Shown in pieces: positions 18,287 to 20,450 of a DNA stretch of 32,000 nt. The position numbers were made by a program, and so were the translations under genes. Source of the DNA: Alphaproteobacteria bacterium (GTDB taxonomy: Bacteria; Pseudomonadota; Alphaproteobacteria; Rhizobiales; GCA-2746425); contig JBPOEV010000001.1 in assembly GCA_051251535.1 (NCBI GenBank), positions 332,698-364,697 on the forward strand, written 5' to 3'. The notes beneath the pieces were generated by a model, which worked only from the letters and a program-made list of their open reading frames with translations, ran no database searches and was not told where the DNA came from. Position 1 is the first letter of the stretch, and every line of letters starts with the position of its first letter.

Positions 18287-18310
18287 ATTTGGTTGCCTCA
18301 AAGCTCAACC
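18287..18310. repeat. att-like repeat X (contains TGGTTGC, complement of the last 7 nt of tRNA-fMet)
   Basis: ATTTGGTTGC|CTCAAAGCTCAACC aligns with Y, AGTTGGTTGC[GGGAGGGCG]CTCAAATCTCAACT (20308-20340). It also forms the internal palindrome GGTTG-N10-CAACC. Confidence 0.45.
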
Positions 18311-18502
18311 GCAGAATTATGTCCCGAAATGCGCAAGTATTTACACTACGCTATTCTGCGGGATCTTACGCTAGCCGAAACAAATACAACCATCAGCGCT
18401 CCGTCGCACGCTACGCTTCGCTCCATGTAATGTTGCTTAGAAGAGCTGCGTCCGCGATTGTCTCAATGGACTTACCTTCCATTTCAATCGGACGACGGTA
18501 TA

Positions 18503-18682
18503 ATGAACAGGCTTCAGGCGCATCGAAAGGACAAAAGCGACGCGGGTCGACCGTTGAACCTGTCGAAAAGCGACAGAGGCGCTGATCCGCGCTTGGTCGA
18601 GCTGGTTCGCCTTCTAGCGCGTCGTGCTGCACGAGAATGGTATGACCAGCAATCGGGAGATCGCAGATCGCCGCGCTCCTGA
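18503..18682 (+). CDS. Hypothetical small basic protein upstream of the recombinase (candidate regulator or directionality factor)
   Basis: 59 aa from the ATG at 18503 (the track gives a TTG start at 18458): MNRLQAHRKDKSDAGRPLNLSKSDRGADPRLVELVRLLARRAAREWYDQQSGDRRSPRS. It ends 19 nt before the recombinase GTG on the same strand. I cannot name a family. Confidence 0.3.
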   Translation: MNRLQAHRKDKSDAGRPLNLSKSDRGADPRLVELVRLLARRAAREWYDQQSGDRRSPRS

Positions 18683-18701
18683 TGCTTCAGGAGATGAAAC
18701 C

Positions 18702-20450
18702 GTGAAAGTTGCCCTTTACGCAAGATATTCAAGCGATAACCAGCGAGACGCATCGATCGCGGACCAATTCAGGGTATGTCGGTTGCATGCTGAGAAACAA
18801 GGCTGGACGGTCGTAGAAGAATACTCCGACCACGCAGTGTCCGGCGCTTCACTGCTGAGATCAGGTATCCAAGCCTTGATCGAAGATGCCCATCGCGGAC
18901 GTTTCACCCTTGTCCTTTCAGAGGCGATGGATCGCCTATCCCGCGATCAAGAAGATATCGCAGGTCTTCATAAACGGATGGCGTATGCGGACGTGAAGAT
19001 TGTCACGCTGTCCGAGGGAGAGATCACACATCTCCATGTTGGACTTAAGGGCACCATGAATGCGCTCTTTCTCAAAGACCTCGCCGACAAAACTCGCCGG
19101 GGTCTCCGTGGACGCGTTGAGATGGGCAAATCCGGTGGTGGAAATGCATATGGATACGATGTCGTCAAGAAGTTCTCGTCGGAGGGGGAACCTATCCGGG
19201 GTGATCGCACGATCAACGAGCACGAGGCTCATGTAATACGCCGAATCCTGATGGATTACGTGTCTGGAAAATCACCAAAACGCATAGCGACAGAGATGAA
19301 TAAGGAAGGCATCCGAGCACCCAGCGGGGGCGATTGGGGTTTCAGCACAATCAATGGCAACGCCAAGCGCGGCACAGGCATCTTGAACAACGAGATATAT
19401 ATCGGACGTTTGATCTGGAACCGGCAACGCTTTCTGAAAGATCCCGATACGGGTCGACGTCAGGCCCGGATGAACCCCGAAGACGAATGGATCATCCAAG
19501 AAGTACCGGAACTACGTATCGTGGATGACGAACTTTGGGCAGCTGTTAAAGAGCGGCAAGCCAAGCTGAAGCACAAGCATGGTGATGCGTCGAAATCGGA
19601 CAACCATTTTCGCGATCGACGCCGTCCCAAGTACCTCTTCTCTGGCCTCACCAAATGCGCCTGCTGTGGTGGTGGTTATACGATGATCTCCGCCGACCTT
19701 GTCGGCTGCGCAACGGCCCGCAACAAGGGAACCTGCGACAATCGTAAGAACATACGACGAGACCGCCTTGAAGAGCGGGTCCTGAACGCGCTTCGCCACC
19801 ATCTCATGGAACCGGCGCTGTTCAAGGAATTCTGCGACGAGTTCACCCGCGAGATGAATCGCCTTCGCATGGACGGCCGAGCCGTGATCAAAGCTGCGCG
19901 ATCGGAGCTTGCGAAGATTGATCGGGAGTTGGAGAAAATGCTTCAACTCTATCTCGACGACGCCCTTCCAGTAGAAATGGTGAAGGAAAAGAGCAAGAAA
20001 CTGGAAAGTCGGAAACACGAACTTGAAGACTTGCTTGCCAACGCTGACGAACCTCCGCCACTGCTACATCCGGAAATGGCTGGGTTCTACAGAGCGCAAG
20101 TGTCGAAGCTCCACGAGTCTTTGCAGGATGAAGCTGAGACGAAACGACTACAGGCAACCGAGTTGCTCCGATCCTTGATCGACGAGATCATCTTGACGCC
20201 GACCGAGGACGAAATGCTGATTGATGTGAGGGGCGATCTTGCTGGAATCCTTGGCATTTCCCTTAAACGCAAAAAACCAGCCACAGGGGCTGGTCAATCG
20301 CAATTTGAGTTGGTTGCGGGAGGGCGCTCAAATCTCAACTTGCAAACGAAAGACGGCCACCCGGTGGGGGTGGCCGATCTTCGTGAACTTGCATCGCAAG
20401 TTGAGATGGTTGCGGGGGTAGGATTTGAACCTACGACCTTCAGGTTATGA
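18702..20450 (+). CDS. Large serine recombinase (resolvase/invertase catalytic domain + recombinase domain + zinc ribbon + coiled coil)
   Basis: I chose the GTG at 18702 (AGGAG 8 nt upstream), which begins VKVALYARYSSDNQ with the catalytic Ser. Other motifs are DRLSRD, a recombinase domain (GILNNEIYIGRLIWNRQRF) and a Cys-rich ribbon (CACCGGGYTMISADLVGCATARNKGTCDN), followed by a long helical region. The frame stays open until the TGA at 20448-20450, inside the tRNA gene. The track start at 18624 is an alternative. Confidence 0.9.
   Translation: MKVALYARYSSDNQRDASIADQFRVCRLHAEKQGWTVVEEYSDHAVSGASLLRSGIQALIEDAHRGRFTLVLSEAMDRLSRDQEDIAGLHKRMAYADVKIVTLSEGEITHLHVGLKGTMNALFLKDLADKTRRGLRGRVEMGKSGGGNAYGYDVVKKFSSEGEPIRGDRTINEHEAHVIRRILMDYVSGKSPKRIATEMNKEGIRAPSGGDWGFSTINGNAKRGTGILNNEIYIGRLIWNRQRFLKDPDTGRRQARMNPEDEWIIQEVPELRIVDDELWAAVKERQAKLKHKHGDASKSDNHFRDRRRPKYLFSGLTKCACCGGGYTMISADLVGCATARNKGTCDNRKNIRRDRLEERVLNALRHHLMEPALFKEFCDEFTREMNRLRMDGRAVIKAARSELAKIDRELEKMLQLYLDDALPVEMVKEKSKKLESRKHELEDLLANADEPPPLLHPEMAGFYRAQVSKLHESLQDEAETKRLQATELLRSLIDEIILTPTEDEMLIDVRGDLAGILGISLKRKKPATGAGQSQFELVAGGRSNLNLQTKDGHPVGVADLRELASQVEMVAGVGFEPTTFRL
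20297..20340. repeat. att-like repeat Y (copy of the tRNA-fMet 3' end plus its downstream flank) inside the recombinase ORF
   Basis: 20297-20320, ATCGCAATTTGAGTTGGTTGCGGG, matches 20393-20416, ATCGCAAGTTGAGATGGTTGCGGG, at 22/24. The offset is exactly 96 bp. The right part (20327-20340) matches X. Confidence 0.7.
20393..20416. repeat. att-like repeat Z (authentic tRNA-fMet 3' end, 10 nt, plus 14 nt of flank)
   Basis: See Y. Positions 20407-20416 are the complement of the tRNA 3' end CCCGCAACCA. Confidence 0.7.

Follow-up and report, generated by a model that had tools for sequence, protein, structure and literature searches.

The 32,000-nt window (the whole stretch of DNA analysed here) contains, between 18.3 and 20.5 kb, a segment that appears, with somewhat better than even confidence, to be the right-hand integration module of a Trb-type ICE or of a remnant of one, with several alternative attP cores in a row, each matched to an allele of tRNA-fMet. 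In the proposed arrangement the attP of a serine recombinase would overlap the 3' end of its own gene; integration would join that gene to the tRNA, replacing the last ~11 nt of the latter, and the element would bring a new terminator for the tRNA/rrn unit, lying antisense inside the integrase coding sequence. The attP cores would be arrayed, with an AG core at site Y and a GG core at site Z, 96 bp further on. Because the host tRNA-fMet allele is C66-C65 (GG), Z would have been used, and Y, unused, would persist within the element, still intact and of attP type; the Y-equivalent would form the junction in relatives with a T66 tRNA (AG). The left junction of the window element is predicted to be of the form B-GG-P', with the native terminator followed by TGGTTGCGGGGG and a CGCAACCA-like arm, and the element probably extends left past the window. 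Features are listed in Table 1, and related loci are referred to by L numbers.

Table 1. Features of the island and its integration module, in window coordinates.
Feature	Position	Strand	Remarks
trbB-C-D-E-J-(K)-L-F-G-I (to 14135) and DUF2274	4827..14389	+	Pfam; G+C 0.60-0.66
Cargo, DUF2274 to recombinase cassette	14373..18128		LysR, two short-chain dehydrogenases, LysR
Decayed tRNA-Arg(CCG) gene	18173..18250	-	Anticodon changed to CTG and CCA to CAA; 5' acceptor strand disrupted
Site X, att-like	18287..18310	+	TGGTTGC joined to CTCAAAGCTCAACC, without the central 9 nt; probably a degenerate remnant
Conserved small ORF, 59 aa	18503..18682	+	Directly upstream of recombinase; called as a gene in L089-L091
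Large serine recombinase (integrase)	18702..20450	+	GTG start; Pfam Resolvase + Recombinase + Zn_ribbon_recom
Second intrinsic terminator (predicted)	20265..20295	- (tRNA strand)	Antisense in recombinase C-terminal codons, just past the P arm of Y
Site Y, complete attP-type palindrome	20298..20345	+	P arm TCGCAATTTGAGT-TGGTTGCG, N6 GGAGGG, P' arm CGCTCAAATCTCAACTTGCAA
Intrinsic terminator inside the Y-Z unit (predicted)	20344..20376	- (tRNA strand)	CGGCCACCC-CCACC-GGGTGGCCG then TCTTTCGTTT; terminator scan
Site Z, attR-type junction in use	20394..20442	+	P arm TCGCAAGTTGAGA-TGGTTGCG, N6 GGGGTA, B' arm = tRNA T-arm
tRNA-Met(CAT), initiator type (C1-A72)	20407..20483	-	ARAGORN; Rfam tRNA 64.9 bits; integration target

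Results

Recombinase gene and repeats Y and Z

The recombinase ORF spans Y, the spacer and Z, and its stop is a TGA within the tRNA anticodon loop. The catalytic domain (PF00239, E = 1.5e-21, residues 29-169 of the 608-aa ORF, with serine motif YARYSSDNQ) is followed on its C-terminal side by PF07508 (E = 2.4e-22) and PF13408 (E = 2.1e-10), and the protein matches the PHROG 95 integrase (E = 3.8e-90). A search for the exact protein returned no record; homologues number in the thousands, roughly 8000 in all, and are alphaproteobacterial, and most of the 120 that were read end in SQxExVAG followed by xGFEPxxFRL. The body of the gene shares 91-97% identity with L006 over most of its length, falling to 82-87% in three 150-nt segments, and ~56-81% with L007, while the 3' end with its Y-Z unit (20202-20478) is 91-95% identical to L007. 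The small ORF upstream diverges from L007 codon by codon with mostly synonymous changes and has no family match in Pfam, NCBIfam or PHROGs; it might, speculatively, encode a directionality factor or a regulator.

Copy Z of the 24-nt repeat, ATCGCAAGTTGAGATGGTTGCGGG (20393-20416), has as its last 10 nt the 3' end of tRNA-Met(CAT), CCA included, and copy Y, ATCGCAATTTGAGTTGGTTGCGGG (20297-20320), matches it at 22 of 24 positions with an offset of 96 bp upstream. The offset is in frame, the recombinase ORF reading SQFELVAG...SQVEMVAG, and the coordinates, sequences and translation are all as an earlier note on this DNA had given them. A 3-mismatch search of the window finds these two copies only (none expected in 100 shuffles), and no further copies of the core, the tRNA end or the P' arm were found across the window beyond Y, Z and X. 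The identity between Y and Z is limited to the 24 nt, and Tandem Repeats Finder reports no period-96 array, which together exclude the plain 96-bp duplication that the note had entertained as an alternative. Its description of Z as the tRNA end plus flank needs amending: the tRNA 3' end is real, but the left 14 nt are element DNA, namely the P arm, and not native flank. The assignment of Z as a P-core-B' junction stands, Z being of attR type, and so does that of Y as P-core-P', an attP-type palindrome with both arms. Junctions equivalent to Z occur in 73 related loci, in which the 3' end of the recombinase gene (its last site) is fused to tRNA-fMet and the T-stem varies by host.

The attachment site and its target

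The palindromic attachment site reads TGGTTGCG-N6-CGCAACCA and has TCGCAAGT... and ...ACTTGCGA as its outer arms; the final 8 nt of tRNA-fMet are the same as its left inner arm, TGGTTGCG. The P' arms mirror the P arm in sites that lack a tRNA (L034, L048, L084-L086, L109, L110), and L034, L085 and L110, all in the attP state, have the palindrome together with its mirrored outer arms; arrays of the window type occur in the attP state in L110 (GA-96-GG with P') and L109. The sequences of attP and attR agree at least as far as N6 position 4. From the symmetry of the palindrome and the point at which attP and attR diverge, we infer that crossover takes place at the two central bases of N6, corresponding to tRNA positions 66/65, which would place the GG core of Z at 20417-20418 and the AG core of Y at 20321-20322. 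The acceptor stem of the window tRNA reads 5' CGCGGGG / 3' CCCCGCA, its last ~11 nt being supplied by the element, and that of the L006 and L008-L012 hosts reads CGCGGGA/TCCCGCA. L006 and L008-L012, with AG-type tRNA alleles, have at their tRNA junction exactly the sequence of the left arm of Y through GGAG. Y itself may still be usable, but its P' inner arm, CGCTCAAA, has diverged from CGCAACCA, and Y may therefore be dead.

The 96-bp Y-Z unit is discrete and polymorphic, with one site in L006 and L008-L012 versus two in the window and L007, and in this the earlier note is borne out. The unit includes a 72-nt spacer between Y and Z that is read through by the recombinase ORF, and has homologues across Rhodobacterales and Hyphomicrobiales at 70-98% identity. 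The copy in L007 is 98% identical and sits at another locus; the unit is therefore inherited with the element, which counts against two insertions at this attB.

Each element arm carries a predicted antisense terminator for the tRNA. The hairpin between Y and Z is kept in 97.5% of cells across 11 homologous units, with two compensatory pairs, and a hairpin plus U-run equivalent to the one upstream of Y is present in all 21 family loci examined, with differing stems. A scan of ~70 loci up to 10 kb upstream of the recombinase found no P'-type site outside the recombinase 3'-end sites, and the P' arm of Y has no match in viral contigs. The contigs from the same organism (L001-L005, L089-L092, L097-L098) all end inside the multi-copy tRNA and yield neither an empty site nor a circle junction.

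Core dinucleotides in multi-site loci

Large serine recombinases use a short, imperfectly palindromic attP, with crossover presumed to lie at a central dinucleotide that must match between attP and attB. Serine integrases are for this reason thought to be tied to one attB. The internal and terminal cores, as placed here, differ in all 25 multi-site loci (~7 independent unit types), in the combinations AG/GG, GA/AG/GG, GA/GG, GA/AC and GG/GA, and each of these cores is also found as a natural tRNA allele. Every spacing is divisible by 3, and the ORF remains uninterrupted. Different sub-sites of one three-site array (GG, GA, AG) are used within a sister clade: L107 has the arrangement GGGGCT-51-GGGACC-51-GGAGTA+tRNA, joined at site 3 in a host with the AG allele, and L108 and the Haematobacter element have GGGGCT-51-GGGACA+tRNA, joined at site 2 in hosts with the GA allele. 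The attL of the Haematobacter element reads GGGACC-51-GGAGGC-P', and the intervening 51 bp is thus at the opposite end of the element. We regard it as an even call that these ICEs in general carry a tandem, in-frame array of complete sites with shared arms and with cores (GG/GA/AG/AC) matching tRNA-fMet 66/65 alleles, such that the matching sub-site is used, the unused ones are split between the two ends, and each comes with a replacement terminator. In the window's own clade no attL carrying an unused GG sub-site was seen, and L006-like elements may simply be single-site; if cleavage falls in the first GG of N6, the argument from the cores is void.

Island context

Trb genes lie immediately upstream of the recombinase region in the window and in L007, L008, L009, L010 and L012, and in L008, L009 and L010 the recombinase cassette follows directly after trbI/DUF2274. 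L008 is from Roseobacter fucihabitans (CP143423) and L012 from R. insulae. Since the recombinase adjoins a Trb cluster here as in five relatives, it is presumably the integrase of an ICE and not of a 2-kb element. The trb genes were found by tblastn in L007-L009 and L012 and have ~76% nucleotide identity to those of the Haematobacter ICE; DUF2274 was assigned through homology to an L008 gene. The ICE on Haematobacter pOT1-2 has both ends mapped, is ~74 kb long and carries a relaxase, TraG, TrbB-I and DUF2274; its attR is P-GGGACA-tRNA, and its attL consists of the native terminator followed by TGGTTGCG-GGGACC-P'. Relaxase and coupling protein genes are absent from the window and from a further 3.8 kb to its left, and no B-core-P' junction (attL) of the island was found within the window, and the island may for these reasons be truncated and immobile. 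An attL was likewise not found in 96 kb of Paracoccus pTAV4 or 50 kb of a P. denitrificans chromid. The window trb genes adjoin the recombinase and share its orientation, whereas in Haematobacter, Paracoccus and L110 they lie at the far end of the element and point towards it, a difference in layout that counts against the proposed reading. Tandem arrays of related elements, as the earlier note had envisaged, do exist, but elsewhere: in the full arrays of L084, L085 and L110, recombinase and P-core-P' are followed by cargo and by reversed DUF2274/trb genes.

The decayed tRNA-Arg gene between the cargo and X scores 27.4 bits against the Rfam model, below the cut-off of 29; its L006 homologue is called as tRNA-Arg(CCG) and its L012 homologue is intact. 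The block of tRNA-Arg, X and cassette adjoins differing tRNA-fMet loci, linked to rrn in L006 and L012 and next to a response-regulator gene here, and it therefore travels with the element. We also considered whether the T4SS island is a separate element inserted at tRNA-Arg(CCG), and rejected this as the main reading: L008-L010 lack the tRNA-Arg, the only integrase of the mapped relative belongs to this recombinase family, and the tRNA-Arg block is carried along with the cassette.

Site X and rival explanations

The earlier note had read X, Y and Z as the B-core-P', P-core-P' and P-core-B' sites of two tandem elements, with X-Y a minimal element of ~2 kb, and much in that reading turns on X. 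The sequence of X and its gapped match to Y are present as described: TGGTTGC plus CTCAAAGCTCAAC (18290-18309) aligns with the TGGTTGC-(9 nt)-CTCAAATCTCAAC of Y, the 9 central nucleotides being absent. In an unbiased local-alignment scan of both strands of the window X gives the highest score against Y (13.5), narrowly ahead of the second-ranking match (11.5), and it lies ~10 nt to the left of where homology to L007-L012 begins, that is, near the left edge of the cassette common to close relatives. L012 could also be taken in favour of tandem insertion, as an intact tRNA-Arg(CCG) stands there 2.2 kb from tRNA-fMet with the cassette alone between them. Of the comparisons with shuffled sequence, that of Y and Z leaves no copy expected by chance, and that of X with Y is borderline; the score of X is reached by one of 5000 shuffles, corresponding to ~0.2-0.4 such matches expected per 32-kb window, and a longer alignment of X with the entire Y-Z unit is not significant. 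X is thus only borderline above chance. Among the relatives compared it is found otherwise in L006 only, and L008-L010 have DUF2274 joined to the recombinase cassette without it; in ~70 other loci the stretch directly 5' of the recombinase is not enriched in att-like relics, and the six matches to the X motif in metagenome contigs are all in unrelated genes. A B-core-P' site would hold the crossover in precisely the 9 nt that X lacks and would have chromosome on its left, but the left flank is the decayed tRNA-Arg, cargo and T4SS genes of atypical G+C, in a block that recurs at other tRNA-fMet loci. A recombinase-only X-Y element fares no better, given the cassettes that follow trbI/DUF2274 in L008-L010, the lack of an upstream P' site and the ~74 kb of the mapped member. 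Finally, two insertions at one attB predict identical cores, and those of Y (AG) and Z (GG) differ, as in every multi-site locus. We therefore consider the tandem-insertion reading very unlikely; X would stand outside the working system and be at most a decayed att relic within the island. The note's fallback, an att pair of a much larger island, comes nearer the truth.

A possible, though rather unlikely, explanation retains stacking as history: Y would be the dead original P arm, a second tandem element would have been deleted to leave its P' arm, terminator, P arm and core behind, and the composite would now move through Z. The complete tandem arrays of L084, L085 and L110 provide a source for such a structure, the right-hand portion of the unit looks like the native 3' terminus of recombinase genes elsewhere (such as P0034 and L024), the gene is a mosaic with an L006-like body and an L007-like 3' end and unit, as would result from exchange of the end, and the diverged P' inner arm of Y would suit a dead site. 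Tandem insertion at one attB again predicts identical cores, however, and all 25 multi-site loci depart from this; nor do fossils predict that the Haematobacter/L107/L108 array should be broken at different sub-sites according to the host allele. In addition, every spacing is a multiple of 3 and the ORF is open. Chance likeness, or a local 96-bp duplication irrelevant to recombination, is hardly credible. X alone could be a chance match, but for Y and Z this is ruled out by the shuffles, which leave none expected, by the missing period-96 repeat, by the homology of the unit at 70-98% across Rhodobacterales and Hyphomicrobiales, and by a palindrome common to the family.

Discussion

If the array of alternative cores is what it appears to be, it would give an element a simple and natural means of escaping the restriction to one attB, and would help to explain how one ICE family occurs across Rhodobacterales, Hyphomicrobiales, Acetobacteraceae and sphingomonads. 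Such an array would offer ready-made orthogonal sites for a single enzyme, which could be tested with synthetic att sites, and the antisense terminator would let an element settle downstream of a strongly transcribed rrn/tRNA unit without transcription running through it. For annotation, integrase ORFs ending in ...VAGxGFEPxxFRL represent read-through into a tRNA, and tRNA 3' ends repeated inside integrase genes should not be taken as evidence of nested mini-elements. The literature searched describes neither this recombinase family nor natural multi-core attP arrays.

The integrases of phiC31, Bxb1, A118 and TP901-1, and TndX of Tn5397, likewise have resolvase, recombinase and zinc-ribbon domains and an attP of ~44-50 bp. 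In contrast to phiC31-type integrases, the target here is the 3' end of a tRNA gene, the attP lies inside the integrase gene with the ORF entering the tRNA, several attP cores with different central dinucleotides stand in tandem, and each P arm has a predicted antisense terminator. The central-dinucleotide rule has been exploited to engineer orthogonal att pairs for phiC31 (PMC3936721), and the likeness is close, in that the recombinase and arms are the same and the two central bases alone set specificity; the window would differ in being natural, with several cores side by side and matched to natural target alleles.

Alphaproteobacterial Trb-type (MPF_T) ICEs, such as that of Haematobacter massiliensis pOT1-2 (NZ_CP035512), share trbB-I and DUF2274, the adjacent cargo and integration beside a tRNA gene, although in the window the recombinase cassette is inverted relative to the mapped Haematobacter element and adjoins the trb genes. 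A survey of Mesorhizobium ICEs and IMEs describes ICEs at tRNA-Met and a few elements with serine integrases (PMC8627217). Most described alphaproteobacterial ICEs have tyrosine integrases, whereas that of the window is a serine integrase. Streptococcus ICESt1 and ICESt3 exemplify ICE accretion with CIMEs, through a tyrosine integrase and identical att cores. As in those systems, an att-flanked remnant lies beside a functional element and tandem arrays occur in the family, but the 'remnant' here is 72 bp, lies in frame in the integrase ORF, has a different core and is maybe a working alternative site. Paracoccus phage vB_PamS_Pami6 also has a serine recombinase and integrates in tRNA-Met (PMC6536676), and thus resembles the window in target, tRNA-Met(CAT), and in its setting in Rhodobacterales; it is, however, a phage and not an ICE.

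Attachment sites and recombinase gene

The two repeats at the end of tRNA-fMet, Y and Z, are identical at 22 of 24 positions and spaced 96 bp apart, as the earlier note described, and a search allowing three mismatches recovered these two only, with none in 100 shuffles. The repeat is restricted to 24 nt, and no period-96 tandem repeat was found in the window. Their reading as attachment (att) sites was also right. In 73 related loci carrying recombinase homologues (L handles) the last site is fused at the DNA level to tRNA-fMet, with a host-dependent T-stem sequence. The sole ARAGORN tRNA call in the window is tRNA-Met(CAT), whose acceptor stem (5' CGCGGGG / 3' CCCCGCA-ACCA) has the C1-A72 mismatch characteristic of initiator tRNA.

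Features of the integration module and its surroundings in the window
Feature	Position	Strand	Remarks
TrbB, C, D, E, J, L, F, G, I + DUF2274	4827-14389		
LysR + dehydrogenase cargo	to 18128		after trb/DUF2274
Decayed tRNA-Arg(CCG)	18173-18250	minus	left of X
Repeat X	18287-18310		
Large serine recombinase ORF	18702 (probable GTG start)	plus	Resolvase, Recombinase and Zn_ribbon_recom domains
Intrinsic terminator	20265-20295 (20295 to 20275, tail TTTTGCGTTT)	minus	antisense in last recombinase codons
Repeat Y	20297-20320		
Intrinsic terminator	20344-20376 (20376 to 20354, tail TCTTTCGTTT)	minus	in Y-Z unit
Repeat Z	20393-20416		
tRNA-Met(CAT)	20407-20483	minus	ARAGORN; Rfam 64.9 bits

The recombinase, which also matches the PHROG 95 integrase, is encoded by an ORF that crosses Y and Z and enters the tRNA, where the TGA of the anticodon loop serves as its stop; the translated C-terminal end is ...SQFELVAG...SQVEMVAGVGFEPTTFRL. 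Thousands of alphaproteobacterial homologues were recovered in a protein search; of the 120 that were read, nearly all have the ending SQ[VF][EK][ML]VAG followed by xGFEPxxFRL, the translated tRNA end, with a minority ending in ...VAGARNHR.... The recombinase body has 91-97% identity to that of L006 along most of its extent, and its identity to that of L007 is about 56-81%, whereas the 3' end with the att unit (the last ~280 nt) is 91-95% identical to L007; judged by these identities, window 18702-20483 is a mosaic of an L006-like body and an L007-like end. The 96-nt Y-Z unit has 98% identity to its counterpart in L007, which lies at another locus, and 70-77% to units from Agrobacterium, Brucella, Bosea and Pannonibacter, and it moves along with the element.

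Upstream of the recombinase, CGGTATAATGA at 18496-18505 (columns 368-378 of alignment A1) is invariant in four relatives and forms a TATAAT box overlapping the ATG of a conserved 59-aa ORF; the start of the conserved block, GCAAGTATTT, resembles the outer P-arm motif TCGCAAGT. Locus L043 has convergent large serine recombinase genes, at 10001-11629 (+) and 13258-11501 (-), whose 3' ends overlap over one att palindrome with one half-site encoded per gene; the second is ~48% identical to the window's recombinase. The tRNA-fMet gene is also cut at the anticodon loop, after ...GGTTATGAG, with unrelated DNA beyond it in L007, L010, L011, L029, L032, L044, L063, L064, L069 and L081, making it a double hot spot with two positions and two kinds of recombinase; in L007 (11697-11760; 11885-16010) the DNA past the cut is an element that carries a tyrosine integrase and a Prim-Pol/D5 primase. 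The window's organism occurs in several public metagenome runs (L001-L005, L089-L092; Logan runs SRR34144888, SRR34144897, SRR34144898, SRR34144899, SRR23272315 and SRR23272319), and its contigs in these, on both sides, all stop at about window 20447-20450, inside the tRNA, as expected because tRNA-fMet is multi-copy.

Anatomy of the sites and their terminators

Sites without a tRNA junction (L034, L048, L084-L086, L109 and L110) show the far side, CGCAACCA followed by a mirror image of the P arm, and attP is therefore TCGCAAGTnnnnn-TGGTTGCG-N6-CGCAACCA-nnnnnACTTGCGA, in which N6 denotes the six central nucleotides. Since attP and attR are identical up to N6 position 4 at least, and the symmetry centre of the attP palindrome lies between positions 3 and 4, we place the crossover dinucleotide, by inference, at N6 positions 3-4, equivalent to tRNA positions 66/65. 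On this reading Z is P-GG-B', joining element arm P to target arm B', and Y is a complete P-AG-P' site whose inner P' arm has diverged (CGCTCAAA).

Both intrinsic terminators follow the tRNA end on the tRNA strand, and a G+C-rich hairpin with a U-run follows the P arm on that strand in all 21 family loci examined, with stems that vary by lineage. Among 11 homologous units the Y-Z-unit hairpin is conserved in 97.5% of cells, and two compensatory pairs occur. In Haematobacter, of the sister clade, the native terminator displaced by integration is seen beyond attL. These patterns suggest that the element brings its own substitute terminator, which would also shield the integrase gene from rrn/tRNA read-through.

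An ICE integration module

The order trb genes, 0-5 kb, recombinase and tRNA-fMet is common to the window and its closest relatives, L007, L008 (Roseobacter fucihabitans), L009, L010 and L012, and no P'-type site was found upstream of the recombinase (flank up to 10 kb) in the related loci scanned; the proposal that X and Y bound a ~2-kb recombinase-only element is thus unsupported. In L008-L010, ~95 nt separate DUF2274 from the conserved block upstream of the recombinase, and these loci have neither X nor tRNA-Arg. The G+C content is 0.60-0.66 in the trb region versus about 0.51-0.59 right of the tRNA. The window's trb genes have ~76% DNA identity to their counterparts in an element on Haematobacter massiliensis pOT1-2 in which a recombinase of the same family adjoins tRNA-fMet, and which also carries ParB, RepA, ParA, a relaxase, TraG, TrbB-I, DUF2274 and BREX cargo. 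Both of its ends were found, ~74 kb apart: attR is TCGAGCAAGTAAAGA-TGGTTGCG-GGGACA-GGATTTGAACC (tRNA), and attL is the tRNA's native terminator followed by gtgtattt-TGGTTGCG-GGGACC-GGCATCGATCACAACTTGCAA. [quoted passage not shown] Neither the window nor the next 3.8 kb to its left showed a relaxase, a coupling protein or a left junction, and the element either is longer than the window or is truncated.

The trb genes of the window, L007-L010 and L012 lie next to the recombinase and in the same orientation; those of Haematobacter (L095/L096), L110, L084 and L085 lie past the P' end and converge on it, as do those of Paracoccus, judged from gene positions. The recombinase/attP cassette appears to have been inverted between these two groups.

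Repeat X is present as described and scores highest against the Y site in an unbiased scan of the window (13.5 versus 11.5 for the next), but is borderline, its score being reached by 1 of 5000 shuffles and a longer alignment not being significant. It is common to the window and L006 only, and lies ~10 nt left of the start of homology to L007-L012. The neighboring tRNA-Arg(CCG), which accompanies the recombinase cassette, is likewise decayed in L006 (6311-6390), intact in L012 (9330-9406), reduced to a 3' half in L011 (9509-9563) and a fragment in L007; L012 also has a 23-nt repeat of the tRNA-Arg anticodon arm (9541-9563), 135 nt from the intact gene. Because the tRNA-Arg/X block has different tRNA-fMet loci as neighbors, rrn-linked ones in L006 and L012 and one by a response-regulator gene in the window, it is element DNA and not a chromosomal B arm. 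The assignment of X as attL is not supported. A second large serine recombinase in L034 runs antisense into a 3' fragment of tRNA-Arg(CCG) (4724-4769), 145 nt from the fMet-type attP, and the tRNA-Arg remains may be what is left of a second integration module specific to tRNA-Arg. In position, X corresponds to the attP that mapped relatives carry beside cargo, and it may be a remnant of a rearrangement that inverted the recombinase cassette.

Stacked cores as proposed alternative sites

A serine recombinase requires matching central dinucleotides, so junctions at one attB should have one common core. Such matching has been put to use (PMC3936721). The inferred internal and terminal cores differ in 25 of 25 multi-site loci, which fall into roughly seven independent types of unit. 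The window and L007 combine AG/GG, Hyphomicrobiales GA/AG/GG and Acidocella GA/AC; GA/GG is the combination of Acetobacteraceae, Xanthobacter and Rhizobium tropici, and GG/GA that of Haematobacter. These differences, and the movement of the Y-Z unit with the element, argue against the local tandem insertion that the earlier note had envisaged. Every core is also found as a natural tRNA allele (terminal junctions: GG 35, GA 29, AG 8, AC 1), and the allele is truly the host's, since position 66 forms a pair with position 7, which derives from the host; the acceptor stems are CGCGGGA/TCCCGCA in L006 versus CGCGGGG/CCCCGCA in the window. Spacings between cores (51, 66, 69, 96 and 99 nt) are all multiples of three (window 20297-20450, L013-L019, L066-L069, L085, L095, L107), and the integrase ORF is open through each sub-site into the tRNA, so that its C-terminal tail varies with integration state and sub-site used.

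Three states of one sub-site array in the sister clade
Locus	Arrangement
L107	...TGGTTGCG GGGGCT -51- TGGTTGCG GGGACC -51- TGGTTGCG GGAGTA + tRNA (agtagg allele)
L108, Haematobacter attR	...GGGGCT -51- TGGTTGCG GGGACA + tRNA (gacagg allele)
Haematobacter attL	flank + TGGTTGCG GGGACC ggcatcgatcacaacttgcaatcgatgccggtaaaga TGGTTGCG GGAGGC + good P' arm

In the sister clade, the 51 nt separating sub-sites 2 and 3 are on the recombinase side where sub-site 3 is used and at the element's far end where sub-site 2 is used, and the used core is the host allele in each case. Such a pattern would be expected from an array of live, alternative attP cores in which the sub-site matching the host tRNA-fMet allele would be the one used. 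The attP state of a window-type unit, L110, consists of GA and, 96 nt on, P-GG-P', with cargo and DUF2274 in reversed orientation beyond; L109 has a window-type unit and P-GG-P'. Within the window's clade the tRNA is joined at the Y-equivalent in L006 and L008-L012 (AG hosts) and at Z in the window and L007 (GG hosts). No attL with an unused GG sub-site was seen from this clade, so a fossil or adapter history is a possible alternative behind the Y-Z stack, and the mosaic recombinase gene is compatible with this and with alternative sites alike.

No description of stacked multi-core attP arrays was found in the literature searched; the unusual feature of this module is its stack of in-frame attP cores with differing crossover bases, each with its own antisense terminator.
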